From a virus (taxonomy: Duplodnaviria; Caudoviricetes): a stretch of DNA of 42,281 nt. Below, piece after piece: positions 1 to 35,024 of the stretch. The notes below the pieces were generated by a model. It searched no databases. It saw nothing but the letters and a program-made list of their open reading frames with translations, and was not told the DNA's origin. The translations under genes were made by a program, and so were the position numbers. Every line of letters starts with the position of its first letter. Positions within the stretch are counted from its first letter, which is position 1. The stretch lies in the IMG/VR virus record IMGVR_UViG_3300027790_000042, positions 1 to 42,281 of that record; one strand, given 5' to 3'.

Positions 1-127
1 TATTGGTTACGGTGGAGGAAGCGTAGCGCCGCCCGCTGTGGTTTCCACAACACCTTCGGCGGGGTCTTCTTTCTGGAGACTTTCTTTTTCACAAGACTAC
101 CCTTTTATCAGACTAAGGAACTCGGCA
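1..127. repeat. Terminal direct repeat (assembly overlap), copy 1; indicates a circular, complete contig
   Basis: 1-127 is identical to 42155-42281. 127 is a common assembler k-mer length, and the repeat cuts through coding sequence (folE end, helicase start). Confidence 0.95.
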
Positions 128-1053
128 CGTACCGAAGCGCGGCGAAATTTACCTAGGAGACAAGAGGTCACCATCTCGGCGGAGGGTTGGCGCACTCCTC
201 GGCATTGCGCACATCCATGCTGCGCTTGTACTACTACTCCGACACCATTCGTCTCTGCGTAGGTGTCCAGTGCTGTGGCAATCTCGGAGGTGAGGCGTTC
301 CTGAATTTGCAGCCTGTGCGCGTAGCAGTTGACTAGTCGAGCCAGCTTTGATAATCCCACTACTTTTCCATTCTCTTTCGGGAGGTACGCCACGTGCGCC
401 TTCCCAGAGAACGGAAGTAGATGGTGCTCGCACAGGGAACTGAATGAGATATTACGGAGGAGTACCATTTCGTCCGAGCTAGCCTCGAAACGCTTAGACA
501 ATATCTCTTCCGGGTCCTCTGTGTACCCTTCACACATCTCAGACATGGCTTTGATAAACCGTTTCGGGGTCTCCCGAAGACCATCCCGGTCCGGATCTTC
601 GCCGAGGTACTGAAGGATACGTGTCACGTTCGACTCTGGTCCCTCCTCTCCGGTATGGTCCCATGGGAATATGAACCACTTAGGATCCTCTCGGTTTACC
701 AACCGAAAGGAAACGCAATCGAACGGAAGTTTCGCGTCTCGGTATTTTATCATTGTCGTGTAGAGAGCCGGAACGCCTGTACCTTTTGAGAATTTCAGAC
801 CCCGAAGTGTAGCCCCAGAGTCCACAATATCGTCGACGACTACGGTAAAGGGTCCGGGTACCTCCGCCACCGGGAGTTTAAGTCTTTCGGCGAGTAGAAG
901 GGCGAGTGGTACCCCACCGGACGGGACACCGTAAACATCTACGATTCTCCCGGCGCGCCATAGTGCGGAGGAGCGGACAGCATCTGCCAACATTCCGGCA
1001 GCGGAGTACACGTCCTCCCATGAAATGCGCTCTTTTTCGATACCATTATCCAT
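97..1053 (-). CDS. folE: Fusion of a Gpt-like purine phosphoribosyltransferase (N-term ~130 aa) and GTP cyclohydrolase I (FolE)
   Basis: N-term has [16 protein letters not shown]-binding loop [12 protein letters not shown] and WFIFPW. C-term has [33 protein letters not shown] and HGCAQCRGV. Confidence 0.93.
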
Positions 1054-1054
1054 G

Positions 1055-1819
1055 TCAGTCGACTCCCAGAACTTTATGCGTTTGAAGAGAGACGTTCCAT
1101 TGCGGGTGCCTCCATACCCATTCGACGCACCGGTGCAATGCCATGGGGTAGAACTCCCCTGAGACCGGGTCCGCCATAGGAGAAACTAGTTTGCGCCTCG
1201 CCTTACGCAACCCATTCGGGAGGTTCTCAATATCTGGGAGTGGGTTGGTCTCCCCAATCACATACTTGAGTTCGTCTGCGAAACAGAGGGTTACGGTGGC
1301 CTCCGGGCCTTCTGTGGGTTTAGGTGAGCAGGTGACCCAATCGAGTCCAAGGCCCTCTTTATCGAAAGCGATGGTCCCATTAGTCTCGATGGCCGTAGTG
1401 GAGATGCGGGAGATCTCCGCTCCGTCCCGCAATAACGTATGCATTCGAGGTGGGAGTACTCGTCGGAACATCTCGGCGCTTTTCACAAGGGATACGACCT
1501 CCCGACTAAGTTGGACAGCCGGCTCCCCTCCGGTGAATACACAGTGTACAGGAAAATTTCCATACTTATGGAAATGTGTTTTCAACACATCCACGATACA
1601 GTCCTCCAACTGTTCGAGGGATAGCGAGGTTCCATTCTTAAAGTCCGTATCACAGAATGAACACGAGAGGTTACACCCGGCGAATCGTACAAATAGGCTA
1701 GAGGTGCCTGCATAGTGCCCCTCCCCCTGTATAGTGGTGAACACCTCCTTCACACTGTAACGGCGTTTTGCGGAGCCTTTACGACGAATGTCTGCGGCGT
1801 CTAGAGTGAGGTTAGTCAA
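1055..1819 (-). CDS. queE: 7-carboxy-7-deazaguanine synthase (radical SAM)
   Basis: [22 protein letters not shown] (CxxxCxxC), TGGEP, ETNG, SPK, SLQTHK. Start moved to TTG 1819, which follows a GGAGG SD and lies just inside the 3' end of queD. Confidence 0.93.
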
Positions 1820-2351
1820 CCGGGTACCCTCCTTCCAGAACCACGAGCTTGCGCGCGATAGCCGTGCGGAGGAATTCAATTTCAGTCCGCGCCGTACACT
1901 TGGCGGTCTCTTGTACGGCTACAGTGGCGGAGACCTCTTTCAGTAGATCTACAAGCTGGTGCATCCTGTAGTCCCGCTCCCGAGAAATGACCTCGTACAC
2001 AATGTCGAAGACTACGGTAGAGAGTCGCTTCGAAATATTCTCCGCCGTCGGAGGTACCTGCATTAAAAACAGCTTGGACCCGTCGTGTTCTACAGGACTC
2101 GCTAGCGGATCATTATTCTGTAGAATAGTCCCGTGATCCCACCGGGTGTCCACGTACTCTTGCACTTTTCCTTTCAGTTCGGAGAAGTCCATCCAATACC
2201 CTAACTCCGGGTGGACTAGACTCTCCGGGTACTGTACTTCGACCTCCACGGCGTAGTTATGCCCGTGAAGGTTACGGCACTTTCCCGGGTGGTTCTGGAT
2301 CCTGTGTGCGGAGCAAAAGTGGATCCCGGTCACTCTAAGTATCTGTGACAT
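1812..2351 (-). CDS. queD: 6-carboxy-5,6,7,8-tetrahydropterin synthase
   Basis: FCSAHRI, CRNLHGHNY, MDFSELK, WDHG, PTAEN; operon context. Confidence 0.93.
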   Translation of the reverse strand: MSQILRVTGIHFCSAHRIQNHPGKCRNLHGHNYAVEVEVQYPESLVHPELGYWMDFSELKGKVQEYVDTRWDHGTILQNNDPLASPVEHDGSKLFLMQVPPTAENISKRLSTVVFDIVYEVISRERDYRMHQLVDLLKEVSATVAVQETAKCTARTEIEFLRTAIARKLVVLEGGYPVD

Positions 2352-2619
2352 GGCAGTTCATTTCCTTCTGTGTGTCATAAGCCTGCTCCGAACATACGTC
2401 CCAAATTTTATTGAAGAACTCAAGCGGGACAGTGCGGGTGGCTTCGCAAAGGTATACATCCCCAATAGGGAACGGGTCTACGCGGAATGTCACGGCAGGG
2501 CGTAAAGCGCGGCTCTGCACAGTCGCATCCGGGTCCGGCCGGAGGGAGACATCCAATATCCGTGCGGTCCGACCACGTTCGCGGGAAATACAGTGGGAGC
2601 CGCGCTTTACTGAGACCAT
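2335..2619 (-). CDS. Hypothetical protein (94 aa) within the que operon
   Basis: ATG 2619 with GAGGAGG SD just after the queC stop; 3' end overlaps the queD start. Confidence 0.7.
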   Translation of the reverse strand: MVSVKRGSHCISRERGRTARILDVSLRPDPDATVQSRALRPAVTFRVDPFPIGDVYLCEATRTVPLEFFNKIWDVCSEQAYDTQKEMNCHVTDT

Positions 2620-2623
2620 ATAA

Positions 2624-3502
2624 TCAACCCTCCTCGTCGTTCTGGGGGAGGGTGCCGTCCTGCATCTGTTCCATGTGTTCGAGCCAATCTTCTCCGAGAA
2701 CATCCGGGGCATATTCATACCGGGTAAGGTCTTCTATCTCGGAGATTGCGAATGCCTCTCGACGTTCTACACATGTACCACATTGACCGCAATGGGAGTC
2801 CAACTCCCCGGCGTAGCAACTCCACGTCTGGGATAGGTTCTCTCCCAGAATGATACTGCCGTGCCGACAGATATCCGCCTTGGAACTTTCGATGAATGGG
2901 GCGCTTACAGGCACTCCGGGGTCATGGCACATGCCAATCGCTTGGGATAGGTGGTCGAAGAACTCCTTCCGGCAGTCCGGGTATACGGCGTGATCTCCGG
3001 CGTGGGCTCCGTAATACACCGTGTAGGGAGTAGCATTCAGATCTCCGTCGGCGTTATTACGTGCCCACGAAATCGCCACGGCGGAGGCAAGCGAGAGGAG
3101 GATCATATTGCGGTTCGGGACCACGGTGGCTTTCATAGACTCCTCTTCGTAATGCCCACTAGGTACCGGTATATTCGGATCGGTTTGAGAACTCCCCGCG
3201 AATATACCTTGGAACCCTGCCATATCCAATGTCATATGCTGGAGGAAATGTTGCGGAGTCAACCCCGTATTAGGTTCCCATCCCGGGCGAGTCTCCCAGA
3301 ACCCTACACGAAACCAGAACTCTTCAATGATAGCCGCCGCTACCTTAAGTTCACAGGAGTGGGTCTGCCCATAGTGGACACTTAACGCGACCACCTTGTC
3401 GTGCTTTTCCAGGGCGTGACGCAGGAGTGTAGTGGAATCCATCCCACCGGAGAACAACACTACAGCGCCGCCGCCGTCGTACTTTGGAAACGGTATCTGC
3501 AT
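2624..3502 (-). CDS. queC: 7-cyano-7-deazaguanine (preQ0) synthase
   Basis: PP-loop SGGMDST, HYGQ, VPNRNMILLS, YPDCR, Zn site TWSCY...HCGQCGTCVER. No glutamine-amidotransferase domain. Confidence 0.95.
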   Translation of the reverse strand: MQIPFPKYDGGGAVVLFSGGMDSTTLLRHALEKHDKVVALSVHYGQTHSCELKVAAAIIEEFWFRVGFWETRPGWEPNTGLTPQHFLQHMTLDMAGFQGIFAGSSQTDPNIPVPSGHYEEESMKATVVPNRNMILLSLASAVAISWARNNADGDLNATPYTVYYGAHAGDHAVYPDCRKEFFDHLSQAIGMCHDPGVPVSAPFIESSKADICRHGSIILGENLSQTWSCYAGELDSHCGQCGTCVERREAFAISEIEDLTRYEYAPDVLGEDWLEHMEQMQDGTLPQNDEEG

Positions 3503-11764: not shown

Positions 11765-13378
11765 TTACGACGAAGTTAGTCCACCAGATTCCCGGGTGTT
11801 GCGTTCAATGAGTGTAAGGATGTCCGTTTGGTTCCGCTGTTCTTCGAGGGTACGTTCTTCTACACTACTACCCTTCGCAAAACCAAGCTGTTCCAGCACG
11901 CTTTGTCCTCCGAAGAATCCGTGGACTCCACGGGTAGGGGCGGCGATATTGGTGCTGTCGAATCCTATCCCGTCTCCCTGTGGTTCTGTAGGGGGAGAAC
12001 CGAACCCGGCGAACAACCCTTTTAGCTCTCCGACACGGTTCTTAATACTTTCCGAAAGAGATTCTTTAGCGGCGTCCGCTGCGTATAGTTCTTCGCTTAA
12101 ACGCCTGCGGTCCTCTCCCGCTTTGTACCGTCCCTCTCGGTACTCCTCGGACTTACGATTGCGTTCTGAAATCCGTTTATCTATTGCGCGGTTCTCGCCT
12201 AGGGAGTCATACTCAAAGAATATTCCTCCTTTGATTTTGTGGTATATTTGCATAACCCGGTCCAGACCGTTCAGTATCTTGGTAAGGACAAAGTCAAACC
12301 CGACCTGTATTCCCTCGAATGCGCTGAGGAACACATCCACCAGAAGGTCCGACATCCGGTTCCAGTGACCGGCGATAGAGTTGCTGCCTATTTTAATGTT
12401 GGAGAACAGCATACCGAACCCGGTGTCTACCAATCCTACGGCGTCTGCCAATCCTAGCAGTGCTATCACAATCAAAATTATCTGCCCGACTGGAGTAGCA
12501 ATTAGAGCAATCGTCGTAATAAGTCCACCGATACCGACTATGAGTCCAACGACGGTCTTAGCCATACTCACGAACTGATCTAGTAATTCGGGGTTCGTGT
12601 TTATAGCCTCCCGTATAGCCACCACATAGGCGGTCATTGTGGACAGTAGTTCTACAATATCGTCTGTCAACTCATGCCCTATTGCCGCCACTAGTCCGTC
12701 CACAGAAAGTTTAAGGCGCGCAAACCAATCCGTTACTACCTCTGCGCTTCTACTGGAGGCTTCCAGGTCTCCCCCTAGTAATGCCGCCTCCTCCCGCATC
12801 ATTTGCATACCTTCTGCCCCCTGCTGGAGGAGGGGGATCATCTGTACCCCGGCACGCCCGAACACTCGCATAGCCAGCGCCGCCTGTAACCCGGTGTCCG
12901 GTATATGCGACAAGGCTTCTACCAGCACAGAGAATCGTTCCTCTGGAGACATATTGAAAAGGTCTTGTATGGGTACCCCTAACGCTTCGAAGGCGTCTGT
13001 AGCCTCTTTCAGTCCTCGGGACCCGTCGTAGATTACCCGGTTCATACCCCGGATAGCCCGCTCCACGAACCCGGCGTTCGCTCCGGTCAATGTGAGGGCG
13101 TGTCCTATCTGGGCGTAGGCGTTGATTGTCAGTCCGGACCGCGCTGCGGACTTGGCGAGCTCATCTCCAAACTTGGCAAAAGATGTAATCAACCTACGGA
13201 TGGCCAAAGTTAAAACAGTCGCCGCAGCTGTCATAGCGAGGGACATGGTCGTGAATTGTCCCTTAAACCGCTGCATCATTCCGCGGGCTCTACGGAGTCC
13301 AGCAAGATACCGACTCTGGTCCAGGCGCAATCGTACGGCCGCTCCGCCCGCTATTACTTCGTTCGCTACTCCGGACAT
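11765..13378 (-). CDS. Tail tape measure protein (537 aa, short tail)
   Basis: Ala/Leu/Gly-rich helical sequence, AMRVFGRAGVQMIPLL motif, hydrophobic central stretch, canonical position. Confidence 0.85.
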   Translation of the reverse strand: MSGVANEVIAGGAAVRLRLDQSRYLAGLRRARGMMQRFKGQFTTMSLAMTAAATVLTLAIRRLITSFAKFGDELAKSAARSGLTINAYAQIGHALTLTGANAGFVERAIRGMNRVIYDGSRGLKEATDAFEALGVPIQDLFNMSPEERFSVLVEALSHIPDTGLQAALAMRVFGRAGVQMIPLLQQGAEGMQMMREEAALLGGDLEASSRSAEVVTDWFARLKLSVDGLVAAIGHELTDDIVELLSTMTAYVVAIREAINTNPELLDQFVSMAKTVVGLIVGIGGLITTIALIATPVGQIILIVIALLGLADAVGLVDTGFGMLFSNIKIGSNSIAGHWNRMSDLLVDVFLSAFEGIQVGFDFVLTKILNGLDRVMQIYHKIKGGIFFEYDSLGENRAIDKRISERNRKSEEYREGRYKAGEDRRRLSEELYAADAAKESLSESIKNRVGELKGLFAGFGSPPTEPQGDGIGFDSTNIAAPTRGVHGFFGGQSVLEQLGFAKGSSVEERTLEEQRNQTDILTLIERNTRESGGLTSS

Positions 13379-13655
13379 TATTTACCTCCGAACTTGTTCT
13401 CGTAAAGTTCTTTTGCTTGCCGGATTGACATACCCCGCCTACGATTTAATTTCTTTTTCTTGGCAAGTGTTATAGCGTTGTGATCGTCTGGCGTTGTCTT
13501 CGTCTTGCTTAACGAGTTGTTGATTATACTAAGCAACGACCCGGTGTGCATCCACTGGCGTTCCTGATTAATAACAGACAGCCGATACACCTGCCGAACT
13601 GTTAGTGGCGCGGTATCTGGTACTCCCGCAGACACTAACAGTTCGTAGATGTACT
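13378..13655 (-). CDS. Tail assembly chaperone extension (gpT-like), probably made by -1 frameshift from the upstream gene
   Basis: Open -1 frame overlapping the chaperone gene, no good independent start, stop coupled to the TMP ATG (TAATG). The start coordinate is approximate. Confidence 0.55.
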
Positions 13656-14051
13656 CTAAATCCCAACCTCCGGGGCCGGCTCCTGTGGTTTCGTCGGCTT
13701 CTTCACTCCCGGAGGTGTTGGAAGCTCCCCCAGAAGGTCTGAGGCCTCCGGAAAGCTCGCTACCAGAGATTCCATAAACGCTTGGAAAGCGTCCGGCAGA
13801 ATGTCTGGGGTGAGGATCTCCGCGAAGAACACGGACTCTTTTTTGATTCCGAAAATGTGGCCCGACGTGCGAGCCGTAAACCAAATCAACCGGATCAGCG
13901 AGGCGACATTCACTCGCATTTCCATAAGGTCGTCCAGGTTGATTTGGCAGGCGGTACACCCGTCGATAATCGCCGGAGTAGTAAGTTCCAGAAACCATAC
14001 CCGCCCTTCCTTGTCTACGAATGTTTGCTTTTTTCGTTCTTTCGTTTCCAT
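13656..14051 (-). CDS. Tail assembly chaperone (gpG-like)
   Basis: Between tube and TMP genes; GGAGG SD; FVDKEGRVWFLEL. Confidence 0.7.
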   Translation of the reverse strand: METKERKKQTFVDKEGRVWFLELTTPAIIDGCTACQINLDDLMEMRVNVASLIRLIWFTARTSGHIFGIKKESVFFAEILTPDILPDAFQAFMESLVASFPEASDLLGELPTPPGVKKPTKPQEPAPEVGI

Positions 14052-14095
14052 GATAATGTACCTCCCTAGATACTGTCACTGTTTTGTGCCTGTAG

Positions 14096-14479
14096 TTAGC
14101 TGAACGTGGGACGTCCCTGTCCGGACAGAGTAACGTCTACCGTTACGACTCCATTCAGTGGCTCCCGCCGGGAGAACCTGTGGATCTTACAGGACCCAGA
14201 AACGGCGTCGCCTTGGTCGTCCACCACACTGACCCCGGACAGGATTGACCCGGTGTCGAACGCGCTTTTCATAGTGTCGTACAGAGTGTCTCCCCCATGT
14301 TTCACCATAGAGAATGTCACGACCCAATTGCGGAGTCCGGCCGCAGTCGATTTCCACCCGTCATTATTCCGAGTGGTATCATCTACCTGTTCGGCGTCCA
14401 TATCGATATCGACGTCCTTGCAGTACTGCACCTCTGCTCCGACAGTAAGTGTTCCGTTGTAGCCCATTTCAGATGCCAT
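14096..14479 (-). CDS. Major tail tube protein
   Basis: DVDIDMDAEQVDDT, GWKSTAAGLRNW, VTVDVTLSGQG, typical of siphovirus tube proteins. Confidence 0.85.
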   Translation of the reverse strand: MASEMGYNGTLTVGAEVQYCKDVDIDMDAEQVDDTTRNNDGWKSTAAGLRNWVVTFSMVKHGGDTLYDTMKSAFDTGSILSGVSVVDDQGDAVSGSCKIHRFSRREPLNGVVTVDVTLSGQGRPTFS

Positions 14480-14482
14480 GGT

Positions 14483-14926
14483 CTAGTTCCTTTCTTTGGT
14501 TGCATCCAGATTTAGTGATATAGAGAACCCGGGAAATTCCCCTTGCTCGGTCAATTTCTTGGGTACACTTGTCGACGTGTTATTTACGGTCCAGTCCTCA
14601 GCGTTGAACCGCTTACCGTCTCCGCGCAGGAACAGGTCGTGTATATCCTGCGCGAGGTTTCTTAGAGACTTATCGCTGTCTAGTTGGTCTCCCCATACTT
14701 TGATCTCTACACTCATAAGTATCCCGACCTCGCCACGAGACGCGGAAGGGGAATCTTCGGTACCTCCATCCTGCATGACAGTTATCAGGGGACTCCCCGC
14801 GCTGTCTGGGGGAGGGTCCGTTAGGTGTACGGAGGGTCTTAGTGTTCCGTCTCCAAAGTCGAACGCCCCTAGGCGTACCGCCCAAGGCTGTTCGGCTATT
14901 AGGTCTCGTATTGCTTTCAAGATCAT
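14483..14926 (-). CDS. Tail terminator protein
   Basis: Size, position before the tube gene, PLITV and VEIKVW...LAQDIHDLF pattern. Confidence 0.65.
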   Translation of the reverse strand: MILKAIRDLIAEQPWAVRLGAFDFGDGTLRPSVHLTDPPPDSAGSPLITVMQDGGTEDSPSASRGEVGILMSVEIKVWGDQLDSDKSLRNLAQDIHDLFLRGDGKRFNAEDWTVNNTSTSVPKKLTEQGEFPGFSISLNLDATKERN

Positions 14927-15351
14927 TTCTTACTGTACCTCCCGTTCAGCATGGCTCCGGTCTGTGTCCGACCTAGAGGCATGTTCTGAAAATACTTGGC
15001 GAAGTTAGGCCGCATCCGAGTAAGCGCCGGGAGCATGAAAGGTCTTTTAGGGGTACCCTCCCCCAATTCGTGGCGCTTACCATAAATCTTAGTAGGGCCT
15101 ACTACCACCTCCAAACTACCATTGGCGGCATAAGTGACACTGCCAGCGAGTTCCCCGCTTTGTCTGTGCGGTGGGTCTCCCGGCTCGGACGGAATTTTCT
15201 CTACACCTCCACCCTTTTTCATACCCTCCTTCGCGAACCGTTCTACGTCTGCCGCCGCTAACAGGAGTGGTTTGATAGCAGCCTCCTCCATTACTTTTTC
15301 CATTCCACGGTAGTCGAAGTGAAAGTCTACGTCTACGTCATATGCGGCCAT
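14923..15351 (-). CDS. Tail completion protein (HK97 gp10-like)
   Basis: PSEPGDPPHRQSGELAGSV, YGKRHELG, PKRPFMLPAL. Confidence 0.8.
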   Translation of the reverse strand: MAAYDVDVDFHFDYRGMEKVMEEAAIKPLLLAAADVERFAKEGMKKGGGVEKIPSEPGDPPHRQSGELAGSVTYAANGSLEVVVGPTKIYGKRHELGEGTPKRPFMLPALTRMRPNFAKYFQNMPLGRTQTGAMLNGRYSKK

Positions 15352-17306
15352 TACAGAGTCCTCCGAACAGGACGCTTACGCGCTGTGCACTTTACTTTTT
15401 TATGTCGAGCACCATAGACCTGCTTCACCTCTCGTACCTCATACCATTGATAACTGTCCAGGTCGTCTCCGAAACCTGCCGCACGAACGTCGACCGGGTG
15501 GAGGGTAACCCCGCCAACACCGGGGATCTCCCGGTACAGCGCGCCCGAGAGGTCCGTAAAGGGTAACAATGTAATAGCGCCACGAGTGTTGAACCCATAC
15601 TGGAACGCCGAAGACATTGTCACGGAGGGGAGCTCGAACGCCCCAGAGATTCGCCATGTAGAACGACCTTCTCCGGATACCTCCAGCGCCGGGAGGGGGA
15701 CCGTACCTGCAGCCACTTTTACGATATGAGTAGCCCCGGAGAGTGTCACTGTACCAATTGAAAATGTTCCAGGAGCCTCGAATAGGGTTGGTACGAACCC
15801 ATCCACGGTGACCGCAGCCACATCGAAGGCCGCTACAGCCGTTTTAGCGTTAAGAGCGGCGCCAGACACCTCCACAGAGGGTACTTCGAATGCGCCAGAC
15901 ACCTCCTGTATCTCGATGTGAGAGGTTCTTCCGAGTACCCCGACACTTGGGAGGGTAATAGCGCCTGATCCCGTGTACGAGGTCGTGTAGGACGCCGCTC
16001 CGGACAATGTGACACTGCCAACCGTTAGGGCTCCGGACCCGGAGTGGGAATTATCCCGATCACTCGCTACACCAGACAGGGTGACCGCGCCCAGAGTGAG
16101 TGCGCCAGCGGCCTCTTCTGGGGGAGGGGTTGCGCTTGTCGCCCCGCTAAGTGTGACTGCGGATATATTGAAAGCGCCCGTTCCGGACTTGCTTACAGTC
16201 GCCACACCGTCCACTAGGAATGATTGCGCTTGTAAGAGTGTTAGTTCTCCGGTGGCGATAGAGTCTACATCGTACCCGGTCGCCGCTAGGGTGACCGCAC
16301 CTATCTCTATCACCCCCGCAGCGTCTCGAAGGGCTCCACCTCGTCCACGTACTGTGACCGCTGGGAATGTCATACCGCTGGTACCGGAGTATTCCCTGTT
16401 AGCGGTACCGGACAAGGTTACGGACCCGACCGTGAAAGCTCCTGCCGCCGTATCAAATAGTCCGGCGCTTCCGGAGAGTGTGACAGCGCCCACTTCAATT
16501 GCGGTAGAGGTTTCGCGTAGTACCGAGCCTGCGCCCGCTACAGTAATTGCGGGGAGGGATAAATCTGTATCCTCAATCAATCCAATATTGTGTGCGGCGT
16601 ACCCTTCTACAAGAATGTCCGGCAGGTTAAAAGATGCGGAGGTCTCTAGTGTCTGCTGTAGAAGTACGGTACCGTCTACCGTGACTGCTCCCGCAGTAAG
16701 TATTCCGGAGGTATGCCACCCTGTATTCGTAGCGCCATCTACTGTGACTGCTCCGATATCGAAAGCGCCCGTTGCTGTCTCGTCCGGAGCGGCCGCCGAG
16801 TAATACACTTTAACCCGGACAAGGTAGACACGGCACATGGTAGCCGCGCCACCGTCTCCAAGGAATTCAACAGCAACACCAAAGTTCGTAGCGATTATCT
16901 GGGCACGGGTGAGTCCGCCGGTCCCCCATACATCCGTAGCACCACCGAAGGTCCGTGTCACTACGGAAGAGTCCCCCCACTCGGTTCCTCCAGACGCTTT
17001 ATTAGTCCCGGTCTGCGTACCTCCTACAATGAGTTGAACTGTGGTGTCCCAACCCTCCGTCGGACCTCCGTCTTCCGTAGTCGCAGAAATTTCAATCTCT
17101 ACACCGTCAATGGTAGACCCGGAAGCAATAGCAGCAGCCAACTCAGTAGAAGCGTCCACTAATGCAGCGGTGTGACTATACTCCGCGTCCAAATCAGCGA
17201 ACGCATTAGTCCCGGAGTTGGTCAACATGTTGGTAAGACTTGACCAAGCAACATCGCCACCACTTTGCGAGGCGGAAGTGAACTCTATCCATCCGGTGTC
17301 TGCCAT
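15351..17306 (-). CDS. Fibre-like virion protein: N-terminal beta domain, ~20 repeats of ~21-24 aa, C-terminal head-closure-like peptide
   Basis: Repeat consensus G-x-F/L-x-h-x-A/S-V-T-L/V-S-G from ~aa 177 to 610; C-term WYEVREVKQVYGARHKKVKCT. Confidence 0.7.
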   Translation of the reverse strand: MADTGWIEFTSASQSGGDVAWSSLTNMLTNSGTNAFADLDAEYSHTAALVDASTELAAAIASGSTIDGVEIEISATTEDGGPTEGWDTTVQLIVGGTQTGTNKASGGTEWGDSSVVTRTFGGATDVWGTGGLTRAQIIATNFGVAVEFLGDGGAATMCRVYLVRVKVYYSAAAPDETATGAFDIGAVTVDGATNTGWHTSGILTAGAVTVDGTVLLQQTLETSASFNLPDILVEGYAAHNIGLIEDTDLSLPAITVAGAGSVLRETSTAIEVGAVTLSGSAGLFDTAAGAFTVGSVTLSGTANREYSGTSGMTFPAVTVRGRGGALRDAAGVIEIGAVTLAATGYDVDSIATGELTLLQAQSFLVDGVATVSKSGTGAFNISAVTLSGATSATPPPEEAAGALTLGAVTLSGVASDRDNSHSGSGALTVGSVTLSGAASYTTSYTGSGAITLPSVGVLGRTSHIEIQEVSGAFEVPSVEVSGAALNAKTAVAAFDVAAVTVDGFVPTLFEAPGTFSIGTVTLSGATHIVKVAAGTVPLPALEVSGEGRSTWRISGAFELPSVTMSSAFQYGFNTRGAITLLPFTDLSGALYREIPGVGGVTLHPVDVRAAGFGDDLDSYQWYEVREVKQVYGARHKKVKCTARKRPVRRTL

Positions 17307-17308
17307 GA

Positions 17309-17917
17309 CTAGTCCTTAGAAGGTTTAACGAATTCGTAGTGGAGGCACTTAGCGTTAGAGCACCTGTAGCATAGTGTTCCTTCTGGTACCTCCGGGTATT
17401 CTGGGGGAGGGCGTCTTTCGAATTCTGAGCCCTCGCACCGTTCACAGATGGGAGGTAGTTTTCCACGAAGAACAACGCCGTGTCCTTTCGGCTTGGCCTT
17501 CCGAATCACCCGCTGTAAGGATTTGCGGAGGTTCTCTGTATTGAGTACCTGCCGGTTCTCCTGTACGTGTATCGGGTATACGACCAGAGGTTTCCGGGTG
17601 CTGATGTCGCGGGAGTCCAGGTTCACGGGAGAGTCTCCGCTGTCTTTACCGGCTTCGCCGGGGACAGAGGTCCTCATTTTTTTGATTGTTCCCTCTGCAC
17701 CATTCTCACCCGGGACATGCATCTCTACCATACCGACACGTTCTGTCACACCGTCATCTATCAATAGCATAGTATCGATTTCGAACATGACAGAGTGCGG
17801 AGAGGTGCACATCTGCTTTCCGAACGTACCACGGGCGACCGCCTTGCCTTTCTCGTTGAGGAAAAACAAGACGACCATCCCATAGGTCTCGACGATTTTT
17901 TGCTGTGTTGCATTCAT
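17309..17917 (-). CDS. Hypothetical protein; N-term resembles the neighbouring 121-aa protein, C-term Zn ribbon
   Basis: GGAGG SD; CERC...CYRCSNAKC. Confidence 0.7.
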   Translation of the reverse strand: MNATQQKIVETYGMVVLFFLNEKGKAVARGTFGKQMCTSPHSVMFEIDTMLLIDDGVTERVGMVEMHVPGENGAEGTIKKMRTSVPGEAGKDSGDSPVNLDSRDISTRKPLVVYPIHVQENRQVLNTENLRKSLQRVIRKAKPKGHGVVLRGKLPPICERCEGSEFERRPPPEYPEVPEGTLCYRCSNAKCLHYEFVKPSKD

Positions 17918-17943
17918 GGAAAAACTACCTCCCAGTAGCGTAC

Positions 17944-18309
17944 TTAGGTTGCGGGTAGGGTCATGGTGAGCGAGGTCACCGATACCGTGTCACCAGCGCC
18001 AATAGTAAGCGAGGTAAGTTCAAAGTCCCCGCCTCCAGAGGTCACAGTACACGTCGCCTCCAATACTTCCGCCGCTCCAGACGTAAAGAACTTTGCGTGG
18101 TCAATTACGCCACCGGTGGCGCTGGAGTCGTCCGTAATCGAGTTGGCAGTAATAGTGCCAGTCGACCCGGAACCGAACGCAGTAGCGCCGAACGTACAGG
18201 TGGCTACCTCCACGTCTCCGGAAGTCTGGAATTCGATAGTACCACTATTACATAGGGCACCGATTGCTTCAATACCGGCGTTTCTCGCCGCAGCTGTCAA
18301 GGTTGCCAT
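17944..18309 (-). CDS. Small Thr/Gly/Ala-rich beta-structured virion protein (fibre or decoration subunit)
   Basis: TLTAAARNA...GDFELTSLTIGAGDTVSVTSLT pattern, common in phage structural regions; AAGGAG SD. Confidence 0.7.
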   Translation of the reverse strand: MATLTAAARNAGIEAIGALCNSGTIEFQTSGDVEVATCTFGATAFGSGSTGTITANSITDDSSATGGVIDHAKFFTSGAAEVLEATCTVTSGGGDFELTSLTIGAGDTVSVTSLTMTLPAT

Positions 18310-18314
18310 AAGGC

Positions 18315-18692
18315 TCATTCTCCTTTTAGTTTCGTGACCTCTGAAAGGTCTACAGGTGTATGAAGAGAGCACCCATTACACGGGAGCCCATTGACAGTCT
18401 CCACCATACGATTCACTGCCGCAGTCATAGATTCCGCTGCGACAACAGATGCCTGTATGGCTAGACTGGACTTTTCTAATGCATCCAAAAGAATGGTGCG
18501 TTGCCACTCCAATCCGTCCGAAATAACCTTCGCAAGTTCTGCCTCCCGTGCCGACGTTTCTTGTTCGCGTCGGAGTAGTTCCACATCTCGCCGCTTGTCC
18601 CACTCCTGCAACTTACGCAGGAGGTAGAAGCACGCAATACCTAAAGCGGCAGGCTGCGTTGCGATTTGTAAGAATGACTCAATGTCTTGCAT
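18315..18692 (-). CDS. Holin-like membrane protein (single N-terminal TM segment plus coiled coil)
   Basis: FLQIATQPAALGIACFYLL followed by a charged helical region. Confidence 0.5.
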   Translation of the reverse strand: MQDIESFLQIATQPAALGIACFYLLRKLQEWDKRRDVELLRREQETSAREAELAKVISDGLEWQRTILLDALEKSSLAIQASVVAAESMTAAVNRMVETVNGLPCNGCSLHTPVDLSEVTKLKGE

Positions 18693-18705
18693 GTAATCTG
18701 TCTTT

Positions 18706-18897
18706 CTACGGAGTTGGAATAAGGATAAAGTCGCCGATTTCGAGGTCTTCATCCGCGTCAATAAGAAACTCTATCTCGGGACCATGGACCTGTACATCTA
18801 CCCATAACTGCGTAGCAGACCCGATCTCCGAGTTGGACCCTTCGCCGTCGAAGTGTTTCGTCGGCCTATACTGTCTTACTGGAGTCTGTGCTTGCAC
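18706..18897 (-). CDS. Truncated head-closure (stopper)-like protein, N-terminal part (63 aa)
   Basis: GTG coupled to the connector stop (TAGTG); YRPTKHFDGEG...LWVDV...FLIDADEDLEIGDFILI; directly after the head-tail connector gene. Confidence 0.6.
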   Translation of the reverse strand: MQAQTPVRQYRPTKHFDGEGSNSEIGSATQLWVDVQVHGPEIEFLIDADEDLEIGDFILIPTP

Positions 18898-19439
18898 TAG
18901 CAGAACCTTCCAAGAGAGTACGGACGGAGCATTGTCATTAGGCTGGAATCCATAAGACCCTGCCAAGAAATACCGCCGGCCGCTGGTGAATTCTGGGAGG
19001 AGGCGTCCGGAGTGTTGTTCCAGTACCTCGCAAAGAGTTGGAGCATCGGGACTTTCAGGCCGGCAGGAATGTTCCCGTCGTACCCTCCGGTGTATACCAC
19101 CTCCCACCGTTTCCGGCCAGAAGACCAGAACCGTTGCGCTTGGGTAGTTTCTTTCTCAATCCCACGATTGTCGAGCATGTAGTTATCAGAGGATTCTACT
19201 GCGTCGTTTGTCTTATCCGTTACGGATGTGATCTCGGTCACCGGGAGCCGTGACAGGTACAAGAGGGAATGTCCACCGTCTACCCGTTCCGTTATAGTGT
19301 CCGAGGTGAAAGTCACGCCGAGCTCTCCCGCTAGCCACTCTTCTTGCGAGTCCAGGATCGCCTGAATATGTACGTCCGACACTGTAGAAGAGAGTCGGAT
19401 GGCGGACTTAGCTTCCGCTAGTGTTATGACGTTTGACAT
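18897..19439 (-). CDS. Head-tail connector / adaptor (HK97 gp6-like, with insertion domain)
   Basis: ITLAEAKSAIRL, LPVTEITSV, VVYTGGY...IPAGLK, MLRPY. Confidence 0.85.
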   Translation of the reverse strand: MSNVITLAEAKSAIRLSSTVSDVHIQAILDSQEEWLAGELGVTFTSDTITERVDGGHSLLYLSRLPVTEITSVTDKTNDAVESSDNYMLDNRGIEKETTQAQRFWSSGRKRWEVVYTGGYDGNIPAGLKVPMLQLFARYWNNTPDASSQNSPAAGGISWQGLMDSSLMTMLRPYSLGRFC

Positions 19440-19635
19440 ACTGTGCTAGTCCTCTGGAGACAAACTGTTGCGCGGCTACGGCAGGGATGCGGTACTTCTT
19501 CCCTGTCTTTAATGGAGTCTGCCCATATTTGATTGTGGTAAGCATTTTGATATGCGCCAGCTTGGGTTTCTGAGATCCGAAAACGAACCTTTCCGCGCTT
19601 GGGCTATCCTCTGTCTGCGTTGTCTGTTCTTCCAT
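19408..19635 (-). CDS. Small protein following the capsid gene
   Basis: GGAGG SD; LKTGKKYRIPAVAAQQFVSRGLAQYV pattern typical of post-capsid small genes. Confidence 0.7.
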   Translation of the reverse strand: MEEQTTQTEDSPSAERFVFGSQKPKLAHIKMLTTIKYGQTPLKTGKKYRIPAVAAQQFVSRGLAQYVKRHNTSGS

Positions 19636-19725
19636 TTCAATTTACCTCCCGGTGCCCCGGGACGATGGGGAGGTACACCATCCCGGGGCGGGTTACGGTC
19701 ACCAGTAGGGAACCGAACTCTGTGG

Positions 19726-30738: not shown

Positions 30739-31470
30739 CTATTCATTCCGCTCACTGTCAATCCAGGTCTGCCCGAGTCCCAACTTATTCACACTCGGCG
30801 TATTCTGGTTATCAAGGCGCTGTACACCTCCGACTTCGTCCCAACTGGGTAATTTCTCCCTGCTAGTGTCCGCCGGTGTGTCTTCTGGGAGAGGGGCGAG
30901 ATCCGCGCCTATCTCCTCGTCCGTTCCTTCTTCTCGCATAGCCACCTCCACCATACCGGGGAGCCAATCTGTCGTGGTTCCAGATTGCGGGGCTCTGTGG
31001 ACCTCTGTACGGGGTTTCTCTAGTACTACCCCTTCGGATGTACATCTCGGCCAAAGAACTCGCCAGTACGCCCCATTTGCGGCCGTATTTTCGCGGTTCA
31101 AAAGTCTCCACTCCCGTTCTAGGCAGTCCCAGAGCACCTCATAAGTATTCAGACCACGGTTTACCCGATTGAGTATGGACACCATTTGCGGTCCTTTGCG
31201 GAATATCTCCAGATCTGGGATAGGCTCCAATGAGGTGCGCCGGTCTGTATGCGCCTGTATTGGATACTGTGGGGAGAATATCACTACGTCTCCGTTAGAC
31301 CCACCGAACACGGGAGAACCATCCACCTCCCCCAGAAGTACGGAGTGTTCCAGATTCAAGTGAATAACCCGACAATACCCTACCCGGTCCGGGTGTTGTA
31401 CATGGGTCACTTCTGAGAAAACTTCGGCGCGCTTTGTCGATTTTGAATTTCGTGTTTCCATTTTGCACAC
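30739..31470 (-). CDS. Hypothetical protein downstream of the dpdA pair
   Basis: 243-aa ORF; AAGGAG SD (start at 31470 or 31461). Confidence 0.7.
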   Translation of the reverse strand: MCKMETRNSKSTKRAEVFSEVTHVQHPDRVGYCRVIHLNLEHSVLLGEVDGSPVFGGSNGDVVIFSPQYPIQAHTDRRTSLEPIPDLEIFRKGPQMVSILNRVNRGLNTYEVLWDCLEREWRLLNRENTAANGAYWRVLWPRCTSEGVVLEKPRTEVHRAPQSGTTTDWLPGMVEVAMREEGTDEEIGADLAPLPEDTPADTSREKLPSWDEVGGVQRLDNQNTPSVNKLGLGQTWIDSERNE

Positions 31471-32225
31471 AACTCCTTTTCTAGTTTGAGTCCGGAAATC
31501 ACATTCATAGGGATCGCTGCCCGGGCCTCGGCTCCACGTATACGCCCGAAACCTTTAGCGGCTCCGGACAGGTCACAGTCCCACCGACCCCAACGAGGTC
31601 CCCCGGTAATCCAAGAGGTAGAGTCTGCGGATTGGAATGGGTATTTCTGGAGGAGGGGTTCCGAGGCGTACCCGAATGAATGGAACTTGTGTGGGTATGC
31701 GTAGTTGAATACGGAATCCCGCCAGTGGGTACGTGCGGCGCGGGTAGGGGCGTTCATACTCCCTAGTCCAACCTTCTCCCACTGCTGGCAATACTTGCGC
31801 AGGTACTTAAGAGGTTCCCCATAGTGGAACACCGGTACTACATTCACACCTTGGCGTTCCATTTCCATGGCGTTCTCGTAGGAGGCTTTCGCGTCCCCAA
31901 TGACGTCCAAGGCTACTACCTCGGTGAAATATTTCGCAAATGGTCCCTCCAACACATACGCGATATATGCGTCGAGGGAAACGGTCCCCTCCACATTCCA
32001 GACGGTGTACGCTCCAGAGTCCAACATAATCCCCGGTGCGTCCTTTAACGAGAACCGGGAGAACAGTTCGTCGAAGTGGTTATGGTACGCAAAGGAAATG
32101 AGGACGTGCATGGGGTTCCGTACGTGGTCCCAGTCGAACAGACTGCTTTCACTCGGCGTGAGTCCCGCCATGTACAAGGTGAACTCCTCCGTCGCACTTA
32201 CAGATTTCTTAATTCGTTTTGCCAT
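31407..32225 (-). CDS. dpdA: DpdA-like TGT-fold DNA-guanine transglycosylase, paralog 2
   Basis: MLDSGAYT, ALDVIGD, PVFHYGE, VGLG, HKFHSFG, PFQSADSTSW; preQ0 pathway in the same genome. Confidence 0.82.
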   Translation of the reverse strand: MAKRIKKSVSATEEFTLYMAGLTPSESSLFDWDHVRNPMHVLISFAYHNHFDELFSRFSLKDAPGIMLDSGAYTVWNVEGTVSLDAYIAYVLEGPFAKYFTEVVALDVIGDAKASYENAMEMERQGVNVVPVFHYGEPLKYLRKYCQQWEKVGLGSMNAPTRAARTHWRDSVFNYAYPHKFHSFGYASEPLLQKYPFQSADSTSWITGGPRWGRWDCDLSGAAKGFGRIRGAEARAAIPMNVISGLKLEKELCAKWKHEIQNRQSAPKFSQK

Positions 32226-32998
32226 TGTAGACCTATCTCCTTTTCGATGCGTAGTGCGTGGGCGATCTCAAGTTTAGCGGCGTCGTAGGCTCCGCCCTTT
32301 CGAGCCTTAAAGTTTTCTCGCATACCGCCAAGGGATTTCCATTGTCCCCAACGCATACCACCTGTCAGGTAGGCGCTGGAGTCTGCTGAGTAGAACGGGT
32401 ATTGTCGGAGCAGGTCTTCTGAGGCCCATCCAAACGAATGGAACTTGTGCGGCCAGCACTCCTGAAAGCACTTGGAGATAAACCACTTCTTTTCCTTAAA
32501 CGTCCTGCCGGAGGTAGCGGCGAGACCTACGACCTCGAATTCGTCGCAGTATTTATGTAGGAGACTCCAGTCTTCCCCGCAGTGGAATACCGGTAGAGGG
32601 TCTATCCCCTGTCTCTGCATCTCTTTGGAATTCTCATAGGAGGCTTTCGGGTCTCCAATGACATCCAGGGCGGTAACGACGTCCCACCGGCGATCCCTGT
32701 GCGGACCCTCCTGTATCCAAGAGATGTATTTATCAAGGGAGATTTCCTTCCCTTGCGTGTACGCCGTGAACGCTCCAGAGTCGAGGAATAATTTCCTCCC
32801 GGCGAACTTAAATTCTACCAGTAGTTTGTCAATCCAATTCGGGTATGCGTAGGAAACTAGCACACTCGCTGGAAGTCTATCCCACTCGAACCCTCTGTAG
32901 ACTGGGACCGACTCCCCAGCGAGGTACAGAGTGAATTCGTACTCATACTCCTTTACGGCGGGAGACTTTCTTTTTCTTTTTTGGTTCTTTGGTGCCAT
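32198..32998 (-). CDS. dpdA: DpdA-like TGT-fold DNA-guanine transglycosylase, paralog 1
   Basis: FLDSGAFT, ALDVIGD, PVFHCGE, VGLA, HKFHSFG, PFYSADSSAY. Confidence 0.82.
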   Translation of the reverse strand: MAPKNQKRKRKSPAVKEYEYEFTLYLAGESVPVYRGFEWDRLPASVLVSYAYPNWIDKLLVEFKFAGRKLFLDSGAFTAYTQGKEISLDKYISWIQEGPHRDRRWDVVTALDVIGDPKASYENSKEMQRQGIDPLPVFHCGEDWSLLHKYCDEFEVVGLAATSGRTFKEKKWFISKCFQECWPHKFHSFGWASEDLLRQYPFYSADSSAYLTGGMRWGQWKSLGGMRENFKARKGGAYDAAKLEIAHALRIEKEIGLQWQNELRNL

Positions 32999-35024
32999 AG
33001 AGCCCAATCCTTTGCATAGTTTGGTAGATCTCGGGACTCATGCGCCAATTCGATCCTTCTCGAATTACCATACCCAAGAGTTCCATATCCTCTAAAACGA
33101 ACTGAATTGTTTTGCGGGGGAAGTCTGTCTCCTGTACTAGTTTGGTGATAGAAAACGCCGACGCTTGGTTCGGGCGACGACTTTTAGAATACATAGTTTC
33201 TACTATACACTCCACACGATCCGGGACGGTACCCATGGCGACCCGCGCAATAGCCTTGAACGTGCTTTGGCGTACTGTGGTGTGATCCTTGAAAATGGAT
33301 ATACCATAGGCGAGCTTCGCAAGCTGTTTTGCTAGACGTGTCGGGTGCTCTGTCATTGGCGAGTAGTGGACTACCCCGGTGAATTGGTCCCGCGGAACAA
33401 CTCCCCGCAGGTGGCTTACCCAAGTCGCAAGGTCAACTATTCGAAGCTCCATTTCTGGGGAGAGGTGAGGTATCCCAGCCTCTGAAGTGTCTACGTCTAT
33501 ACAAGCGGCAGCAGCCTCCCGGAGTTCGGTATTCATTATATCGTCTTTACCCAAAGACCGGATCGCTCGTAAGATAATGTCGTGCTCTCGGGCGTCGCGG
33601 GAACTCGTGCGGGTGAGCCTACACCGGAGGAACCTTTCACCTAACATGGTTCCTTGGGCTCCCTCTCGTTCAATGGCGGGAGTCACCCCGGCGATTATAC
33701 CGAACTTGGACTCGTACTTACGATGGACCCCGTTGCCAAGGTGCTTTTCACAATACCCGTCGTAGCAGTCCCGGAGGATACCGAAGATCTCCTCCTTTTC
33801 CACACTGTCTTTCGATAGTATGGTAGTGAAATCTTTTATCACTAGAACCCGGTCATTGAGTTTAGGGATCAGCGATGGGTCTTTGCCATTAGAGTTGAAC
33901 CCGGAAATGAGACTCGCCCGGGTAAGGCTGGACGCCTCTATAATCCCTTTCGCTCCGCCAAGGGTACGGATAAGTGCGGTCTTGGACCCTCCCGGAGGCG
34001 CTACAATCATAAGCCATAACGGGTCCCCGGGAATACGGTTCGCGAATATGGTCCCGAATAGAATGTCAATTACCTCAGTATCTGGTATGACAAGCCATTT
34101 CCGAAACGCTTCATATACGGCCTCGTACGCCATACCTTCACCGGAGTATTGCACCGGTCCATATAATTTAGCATTCTCTAGTACCTCCTCCGCTTCGGCA
34201 TCCCCTTCAATTTCTCCGGTAGGGGCGTGCTGTAGTCTGTCGTGGAGGGTGTAGTATAAACGAGGCTCCCGATCTCCCTGCAAATAGTAGTCCCGAAAAT
34301 CAAAGTCGTCCGGGGTACCTTCTGGCCAGTGAAAGAACCGGAGGTCCTTGGCGACACCTGTCAGGCGTTTGAATACTCGTACTGTTCCCTTCTCTCCCGG
34401 ACTGTCGTTATCGTAAATAACGTTGACGACCTTACCTTCGCATAACGCTGTACAGTCTGTGGGAAATGTGTTAGCCCCGGGCATGGCGTATACGTCGTGC
34501 TCTACACCACACTTTCGGAGGAGTTCCCACAGCGCCATAGCGTCCCATTCCCCTTCGCATATCCACACTGTGTCCGAGTCGTGCACTTTCTGGGGGCGGA
34601 GCATATTCAGTTTACACCCGGCAGTCGTCATCCCCCTACCGCCTACCCGGTACCGCTTAAGGTTGACAAGCCTCCCCCGGACGTTACCATGCATAGGGAT
34701 TGTGAAGAACTCTCCACTCCAACCGACGCCCCAAGCGCGGAACGTTTCTTTTTCTAAACCACGAGAACGGGTCAATTTCGCCAACGCCTTGTTCGTGGCA
34801 TGGTTTACGAATACCGTGGAGATCTGGTCTAGGAACCCTTCGAGGTTCCCATCTCTCCCGCAGGACTTACAATCCCACAACATGTTTTCTCTGTTGATAT
34901 ACATTTTCTCAGACCCGCCGCAGAAGGCGCAGTCTCCTATTACTTGCGTTCCGGAGTCTGTGCGTACTTTGAACCCAAGCTGCTCGAACGGTTTTTCCGG
35001 AGGGTGTTTCGTTTTACGAGGCAA
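32943..35024 (-). CDS. Primase-helicase: Zn finger + TOPRIM + MCM-like AAA+ ATPase + probable winged helix
   Basis: CAFC...CKSC; ICEGEWDAM; IYDNDSPG; MIVAPPGGSKT; LTRASLISG; LVIKDF; GERF. Confidence 0.85.
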   Translation of the reverse strand: MPRKTKHPPEKPFEQLGFKVRTDSGTQVIGDCAFCGGSEKMYINRENMLWDCKSCGRDGNLEGFLDQISTVFVNHATNKALAKLTRSRGLEKETFRAWGVGWSGEFFTIPMHGNVRGRLVNLKRYRVGGRGMTTAGCKLNMLRPQKVHDSDTVWICEGEWDAMALWELLRKCGVEHDVYAMPGANTFPTDCTALCEGKVVNVIYDNDSPGEKGTVRVFKRLTGVAKDLRFFHWPEGTPDDFDFRDYYLQGDREPRLYYTLHDRLQHAPTGEIEGDAEAEEVLENAKLYGPVQYSGEGMAYEAVYEAFRKWLVIPDTEVIDILFGTIFANRIPGDPLWLMIVAPPGGSKTALIRTLGGAKGIIEASSLTRASLISGFNSNGKDPSLIPKLNDRVLVIKDFTTILSKDSVEKEEIFGILRDCYDGYCEKHLGNGVHRKYESKFGIIAGVTPAIEREGAQGTMLGERFLRCRLTRTSSRDAREHDIILRAIRSLGKDDIMNTELREAAAACIDVDTSEAGIPHLSPEMELRIVDLATWVSHLRGVVPRDQFTGVVHYSPMTEHPTRLAKQLAKLAYGISIFKDHTTVRQSTFKAIARVAMGTVPDRVECIVETMYSKSRRPNQASAFSITKLVQETDFPRKTIQFVLEDMELLGMVIREGSNWRMSPEIYQTMQRIGLYGTKEPKKKKKVSRRKGV

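Follow-up and report, generated by a model that had tools for sequence, protein, structure and literature searches.

A candidate two-chain head-tail stopper whose last strands end a larger protein in a siphophage and its relatives

Where is the head-closure (stopper) protein of a long-tailed phage that seems to encode none? The question is raised by IMG/VR virus record IMGVR_UViG_3300027790_000042 (Duplodnaviria; Caudoviricetes), the 42,281 nucleotides (nt) of which we call the window. As a phage record it is complete and circular (127-nt end repeat; direct terminal repeats). Family profile searches identified genes for the terminase, portal, capsid, tail tube, and tape measure, and by these the phage is long-tailed, of the siphophage type. 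At the position of the stopper gene it has an open reading frame (ORF) of 63 amino acids (aa), and a second piece of the stopper appears to form the end of a 651-aa repeat protein. Neither half gave a head-closure match in Pfam, PHROG, or NCBIfam models, and it is for this reason that such genomes seem to lack the gene. Profile comparisons confirm, at the level of sequence, that the 63-aa ORF supplies one part of a stopper and the final 32 aa of the 651-aa protein the complementary part, and we conclude that the split is real and clade-wide, a two-chain variant of the gp16-type stopper. We put at roughly 0.8 the probability that the tail, acting in trans, contributes its two strands to the barrel of the 63-aa protein and so completes it.

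The neck genes lie on the minus strand throughout, in the order connector, 63-aa ORF, 125-aa, 121-aa, 202-aa, and 651-aa proteins, tail completion, terminator, and tube. The TAG stop of the 180-aa head-tail connector (adaptor; 18897-19439; phrog_442, expectation value (E) of 1e-22) overlaps the GTG start of the 63-aa ORF (18706-18897), which is preceded by GGAAGG and ends in DLEIGDFILIPTP and a stop codon, soon after a motif of GD and a hydrophobic residue. Three genes separate this N-half from the 651-aa ORF (15351-17306), the last 32 residues of which (15449-15351) open with QWYEV. The stop of the 651-aa ORF is coupled (TAATG) to the gene for the tail completion, or Neck1, protein (HK97 gp10-like; 14923-15351; phrog_5, E of 6e-8); this coupling and the three intervening genes are as the original prediction described them. 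From the stop of the N-half to the Q codon of the tail there are 3,256 nt, and the stopper is spread over two ORFs, with no single polypeptide. The gene position is nevertheless that of head-closure proteins, with the N-half after the connector and the tail abutting the Neck1 gene.

Loci of relatives were gathered from viral and metagenome contigs through alignments of the connector, the Neck1 protein, and the 121-aa protein, and 234 loci were scanned with profiles. A search for relatives with an uninterrupted gene was successful: 12 nonredundant loci (L009, L010, L011, L087, L112, L113, L114, L116, L118, L128, L129, and L157) have a single intact gene of 90 to 103 aa directly after the connector. 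The initial scan with a two-half profile was circular for its own seeds, and leave-out profile tests are used as evidence instead. With a profile of intact relatives only, the 63-aa ORF ranked first among 1,176 segments from a six-frame translation of the window (E of 4e-8), and the same kind of profile made with 12 intact sequences gave an E of 1e-10. HHalign placed the N-halves on intact residues 2 to 60 with a probability of 99.5 (range, 98 to 99.5), against a maximum of 13 for shuffled columns. The view that this ORF is a truncated head-closure protein was thereby borne out. The intact-only profile detected no second stopper among the same 1,176 segments of the complete window genome.

The other half was traced in the same way. 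A tail-only profile, built without the window, P0009, or any intact sequence, ranked the C terminus of the 651-aa protein as the best of the 1,176 window segments (E of 0.0013), and HHalign placed the tails on intact residues 59 to 92 with a probability of 96.9 (91.5 in a separate run; shuffled-column maximum, 2.4). Two members of the tail set, P0068 and P0118, were put into it by eye despite low scores. When the C-terminal third of the intact proteins was used as a profile, it scored more than 2 bits near the C terminus in 14 of the 20 carriers, and in 9 of these 14 with an E of ≤0.002. The tail of the window is 59% identical to that of P0009, compared with 41% for the rope and 32% for the tip of the protein. 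The missing piece of the stopper does, then, end the 651-aa protein as had been proposed, with a length of 32 aa rather than about 33.

Searches in other directions were empty. The 63-aa ORF as a query found nothing among viral contigs or longer proteins; the empty search of longer proteins speaks weakly against a form in which the insertion sits within a single chain, and no single-chain stopper with a long in-frame insert occurred in the 234 loci. Searches of PDB sequences with the intact and N-half profiles returned no stopper, and a search of cultured phages with the N-half returned chance matches only. Atlas matches of the 63-aa ORF, from a TNT-cluster and all below 0.9, were treated as chance.

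Both halves, apart from each other, were found in 11 nonredundant loci of the 234, namely, the window and 10 others from other datasets, all uncultured (L008, L012, L018, L083, L084, L085, L091, L109, L189, and L191). Seven more loci show only the N-half before the contig end is reached, and two show only the tail; the remainder are distant relatives with canonical stoppers of 100 to 120 aa or other necks, duplicates, or too short. Among the 150 listed matches of the 651-aa protein there are seven further proteins with such a tail, two of which were picked by eye. The N-halves are only 15 to 45% identical to each other, and all 18 of those seen stop 8 to 14 residues after the start of the GD motif. 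The inserts range from 1,008 to 4,957 nt and differ in cargo, which includes an endolysin and a DNA methylase; the tail carriers (128 to 893 aa) are unrelated and comprise repeat proteins, a LamG lectin protein, and small domains of 128 to 147 aa. In L109 one carrier gene stands alone between the halves, which is the simplest state of the split. Together with the intact relatives, the profile alignments, and the fold search described below, the ten additional split loci uphold the original prediction of a naturally split stopper.

The history of the split was approached through two trees. A connector tree (33 rows), mostly unresolved in its branching, required 6 to 9 changes between intact and split states. 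The better tree, of connector plus Neck1 (21 rows), which left out outgroups, L118, and loci missing one or the other gene, required 3 changes and did not reject one split clade (approximately unbiased test, p-AU of 0.084).

Several features of the neck vary among these loci. In most split loci the Neck1 protein is lengthened at its C terminus by a short conserved stretch (14923-14970 in the window; also L083, L084, L085, L091, L008, and L018), which is absent in the aligned intact loci L009, L010, and L087 and in split locus L012, and which may be a mark of the clade or a compensating contact. The connector of L118 (L118:5098-6126) has 342 aa, roughly double the norm, of which 327 are covered by connector matches, and is possibly duplicated or fused. 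A membrane-type gene lies between the halves in the window (18315-18692) and elsewhere follows the complete stopper or the tail (L009:7983-8348, L109, L116:1306-1602, and L129); we regard its shifting place as a sign of repeated rearrangement around the end of the stopper. In the window this gene encodes the 125-aa protein, which has a hydrophobic N-terminal stretch and a helical tail by hydropathy and look-alikes in relatives; it had no family match in Pfam, PHROG, and NCBIfam scans, and a holin-like role would be a guess.

The same layout bears on whether the split is an artifact. A misjoining of two phage genomes by the assembly at these points might be entertained for a sequence that is present in only one public run, from marine sediment, but one unitig, on a 30.4-kb Logan contig with a depth of 72, spans both junctions without differences or joints. 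That contig probably comes from the source sample and therefore checks the assembly but does not count as an independent isolate; misassembly is already refuted by the ten other contigs from other datasets, and we give this explanation practically no weight.

A second explanation is that the insert is lost from the RNA, the DNA, or the protein, by way of an intron, an excising element, a ribosomal hop, or an intein, so that a single-chain stopper is restored. Although all loci are broken at one and the same point, as would befit a site-specific element, signs of an att site, intron, intein, or excising element (a conserved junction, a structured RNA family, an enzyme of its own, or an open frame) were not found. 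No junction repeat rose above background in 10 of the 11 loci (5 nt in the window), the exception being a 10-nt repeat in L189 against a null maximum of 9, and no junction word was common to the split loci (best, 3 to 4 of 11). Rfam gave no match (best E, 0.32, to a small nucleolar RNA model), and no integrase, recombinase, homing endonuclease, or reverse transcriptase was detected among the window ORFs scanned. The stop codons of the N-halves lie at differing distances, with ordinary ribosome-binding sites after them, and the genes of the inserts are ordinary ones such as the endolysin and methylase. Apart from the repeat in L189, this agrees with the lack of att and intron signatures noted originally, and we consider removal of the insert very unlikely.

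We return to the two-chain stopper and its likely fold. The barrel was modelled on an intact relative and carried to the halves of the window by profile alignment. An AlphaFold2 model of one intact relative (predicted local distance difference test (pLDDT) score of 83) has neck stoppers as its top fold matches: XkdH (Z, 11.0; root mean square deviation (rmsd), 2.7; 86 residues aligned), followed by XM1 (Z, 10.5), the gene transfer agent (GTA) (Z, 10.1), and Pam3 (Z, 10.0). Foldseek returned the Pam3, Douge, GTA, XM1, and SPP1 necks, none of them at an E of ≤0.001. The intact members are thus predicted to have the beta-barrel fold of gp16-type stoppers. On this model the break falls in the turn between strands 56-59 and 62-69, and the tail equals strands 62-69 and 77-85, the last two (about intact residues 62 to 92).

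A complex prediction for the two halves of the window scored 0.39, and the best control scored 0.01; the runs agreed in at least 84% of contacts, and the pLDDT of the partner was at least 62. For orientation, 18 of 157 solved pairs and 2 of 215 mismatched pairs passed with a score no higher than 0.60. The prediction of the two chains as one complex, put forward originally as a check, therefore lends weak support to a two-chain assembly.

Split and intact stoppers of the clade alike have 13 to 17 residues fewer than canonical members between two barrel strands. The residues wanting are probably the gating loop, judging from PMC11661146. Because this probable gating loop is missing, the clade's stoppers may connect the head to the tail and not themselves act as a plug for the DNA.

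We propose the following mechanism. The only stopper gene is cut at one predicted beta-turn, giving a 63-aa protein and a 32-aa tail on a 651-aa repeat protein; the two strands of the tail would insert into the 63-aa piece and complete its barrel, and a rope-and-bead fibre would thereby be tied to each subunit of the neck ring. Six pairs of N-half and tail would form a ring, presumably six-fold, between connector and terminator, and from each pair would hang a rope that bears bead dimers of two kinds and has the tip domain at its end, for a total of six fibres. As the tail would be needed for joining head and tail, display of the fibre would be obligatory, and the product of any gene joined to the tail would end up on the neck.

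Another possibility is that the 63-aa protein forms a minimal neck ring unaided, for instance through strand swapping between subunits, and that the tail is a relic or docks the fibre on a different neck protein. The tail of the window is diverged, and DT57C is named among phages without a separate stopper ring in PMC11661146. The tail is kept at the C terminus and next to the tail completion gene in 11 of 11 loci with both sides visible, however, and on unrelated carriers; the strands that the 63-aa protein would have to do without are two long strands of the predicted barrel, and an N-half without a tail was seen at no locus among those reaching the tail completion gene. We regard this possibility as unlikely. 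It is also conceivable that the halves do reassemble and that an internal start or proteolysis frees a short tail, leaving the rope on some or none of the ring positions. Several loci have an in-frame ATG or GTG 5 to 15 codons upstream of the tail, the window has GGAG shortly before an in-frame CTG, and six long fibres may crowd a small ring. Yet the 11 right junctions have no start codon or ribosome-binding position in common, and the six-fold nozzle of podophage A1002 carries six ropes (PMC13730344). Such a freed tail seems to us quite unlikely. Completion of the barrel in trans by a tail that stays on its carrier is the reading followed below.

The carrier in the window has three parts. An N-terminal domain of about 172 aa (16791-17306) is widespread in phage proteins, and most of the 150 listed phmmer matches of the 651-aa protein fall on its residues ~1 to 175. 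The domain is followed, from residue 177 to about 613 (15468-16778), by a rope of repeats of 21 to 23 aa each, of which the profile counts 17 to 18 and the eye about 20, and then by the stopper tail (15351-15449). The N-terminal domain would be the distal tip, with a binding role in reversible contact with host or particle.

Two genes between the halves may encode the beads. The AlphaFold2 model of the 121-aa protein (17944-18309; phrog_3758, E of 1e-6; pLDDT, 96) matches a chain in entry 9rkv, for the tail fibre of phage 7-7-1 (Z, 13.8; rmsd, 1.9; 120 residues aligned); the protein also matches 9rkv_A by sequence (E of 4e-6). Other fold matches are to the Sf14 neck (9c39_K; Z, 9.5), six Bas63 connector chains (9mt4), and GP4 Fiber I (8jou; Z, 5.4), and we predict that the protein has the fold of these whiskers and beads. 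The 202-aa protein (17309-17917) has a bead-like N-terminal portion of about 120 aa and a C-terminal four-cysteine motif. Its family aligns to the bead family (HHalign probability, 90.7), the bead hidden Markov model gives no direct match to the window's own copy, and by sequence it is a probable second bead. Sheet augmentation would thread dimers of the two proteins onto the repeats, in the manner of Bas63, GP4, and A1002; at one dimer per repeat, and scaled from A1002, about 20 dimers would make a fibre of about 50 nm. Six rope-and-bead neck fibres are thus likely.

Across the split loci, a repeat carrier is present in all seven that have a bead gene in the insert (six by profile, L008 by eye) and in none of the four that do not, and a bead gene was found in 0 of 12 intact loci within the DNA fetched. 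The long neck fibre of the original prediction is probably a rope-and-bead fibre with its bead genes in the insert, and the tail carrier is a nonrope protein in 4 of the 11 split loci. Bead genes also occur beside rope proteins with other C termini and no split stopper (L194, L200, L201-L204, L205, and L208), and because such cassettes with other ends are found in unrelated loci, the cassette is not tied to the stopper anchor. Five cultured records contain a bead gene; the one examined has head and injection genes like those of P22 and lacks an annotated stopper of the type described here. In L189 the connector (L189:8-1030) carries rope repeats at its own N terminus (6 matches), besides the rope on the stopper tail.

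Some results weigh against parts of this interpretation. The window's own tail has no significant match to intact-only profiles (none with the first, and 5.2 bits at an E of 1.8 with 12 sequences) and escapes the profile made from the C-terminal third of the intact proteins; it is therefore connected to the intact protein by way of the other split tails. Compared with L191, the tail is kept no better than the rope (23% versus 24%). The intact relatives themselves are all below the cutoffs of the curated head-closure families compared (PF05521, PF05354, and NF049848), the best being PF05521 at 20.5 of 25 bits. As to the complex prediction, scores in the band of 0.39 are more often wrong than right unless the pairing is likely beforehand, and the pair may have passed because halves of a split gene resemble stoppers of solved structure. 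The seed of the rope profile came from the window, which biases the profile towards close relatives, and the tip domain has no named family, its Atlas neighbours being unnamed.

The rest of the locus is conventional. The tail completion gene is followed by those for the tail terminator (14483-14926; phrog_123, E of 0.002) and the tail tube protein (14096-14479; PF06199, E of 5e-9). Between the tube and tape measure genes, two overlapping frames of 131 and 233 aa (13378-14079) fit what we take to be a tail-chaperone pair made by frameshift. A 43-aa ORF without a family match lies between the capsid and connector genes (19509-19640), and short ORFs resembling it sit before or after the connector in several relatives. 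The window also has a 7-deazaguanine DNA-modification set of a known kind (97-3502 and 31407-33007), comprising GTP cyclohydrolase with an N-terminal phosphoribosyltransferase-like part, QueE, QueD, QueC, and two adjacent tRNA-ribosyltransferase-like genes. A scan of the window for promoters and terminators gave chance level only. Two scans of prokaryote genomes identified no host, one being empty and the other giving one 1.7-kb contig, and in the search of cultured phages none had either the connector or the Neck1 protein of the window.

Why would a stopper be divided in this way? We speculate, at slightly less than even odds, that its last ~32 residues are a portable and obligatory neck-display tag that has been moved onto unrelated cargo (ropes, the LamG lectin protein, and the small domains), with the break serving as an exchange site and lineages switching between intact and split states more than once. 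The split shows that a single-chain component ranking among the most conserved in long-tailed phages can exist in two pieces, probably as a mount for variable fibres, with a site of gene exchange placed inside an essential gene. The 63 and 32 residues would also make up a putative natural complementation pair that is easily tested in vitro.

Comparison with known systems places the stopper among familiar proteins. The single-chain stoppers SPP1 gp16, lambda gpFII, the RcGTA stopper, PBSX XkdH, and 80alpha gp50 (PF05521) have the same gene position and share the predicted fold of the intact relatives and the GD-hydrophobic and Y-x-V strand motifs. They are single chains, whereas that of the window would be two, and it is, like its intact relatives, without the 13- to 17-residue loop. 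The stopper barrel of Staphylococcus phage 812 gp97 has an extra outward-facing domain in a single chain, according to PMC12886913. We found no split siphophage stopper in the open-access literature; passages on proteins "split into two" in PMC13595954 and PMC10276861 concern other proteins.

The fibre has relatives of its own. In Bas63 (PMC12609058), a "rope" runs through the whisker dimers as a string runs through beads, and it completes their beta-sandwich. The collar-whisker of Bas63 and Sf14 and Fiber-I of GP4 have the bead fold seen here, as dimers on an extended rope, and those of Bas63 and Sf14 are at the neck, as proposed for the window. They differ in that the rope is in a separate immunoglobulin-like collar or rope protein on an intact neck and bears 2 to 5 dimers, whereas the window's rope, of about 20 repeats, continues into part of the core stopper. 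Cyanophage A-1(L) gp80-82 also form a bead-chain fibre at the neck, with trimeric beads joined head to tail, no rope, and anchorage on gp5 of an intact neck (PMC10966104). This chain was dropped as an analogue, as no A-1(L) neck-fibre chain was among the fold matches of the 121-aa protein.

The closest parallel is the nozzle of podophage A1002. According to PMC13730344, cryo-electron microscopy shows a split nozzle in which rope protein gp39 supplies missing strands to nozzle-base protein gp42; gp39 carries dimers of the bead proteins gp40 and gp41, 11 of them on about 270 rope residues over about 300 Å. The original prediction knew of no description of such an architecture, but the principle has thus been published, for an unrelated fold. 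In A1002, and by our reading probably in the phage of the window, a six-fold ring protein below the adaptor is split and its missing strands are provided in trans, the C-terminal part ends a long protein (about 620 aa in A1002) with an N-proximal beta domain and a rope, and there are two bead proteins, the genes for both of which, by the gene numbers, lie between the halves. A1002 differs as a podophage with a beta-propeller nozzle in which about 150 residues complete the ring; the window represents a siphophage with a gp16-type barrel completed by about 32 residues, intact relatives, and the same tail on unrelated carriers. The A1002 proteins were absent from the results of the fold and PDB sequence searches, none of which was aimed at homology to A1002. 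We conclude that the split stopper of the window probably works like the split nozzle of A1002, outside that family. The split-ring-plus-rope design of a podophage would thereby be extended to an unrelated fold, and, if this is true, a split core ring with rope-fused strands would be a convergent design, present in two unrelated folds and two morphotypes.

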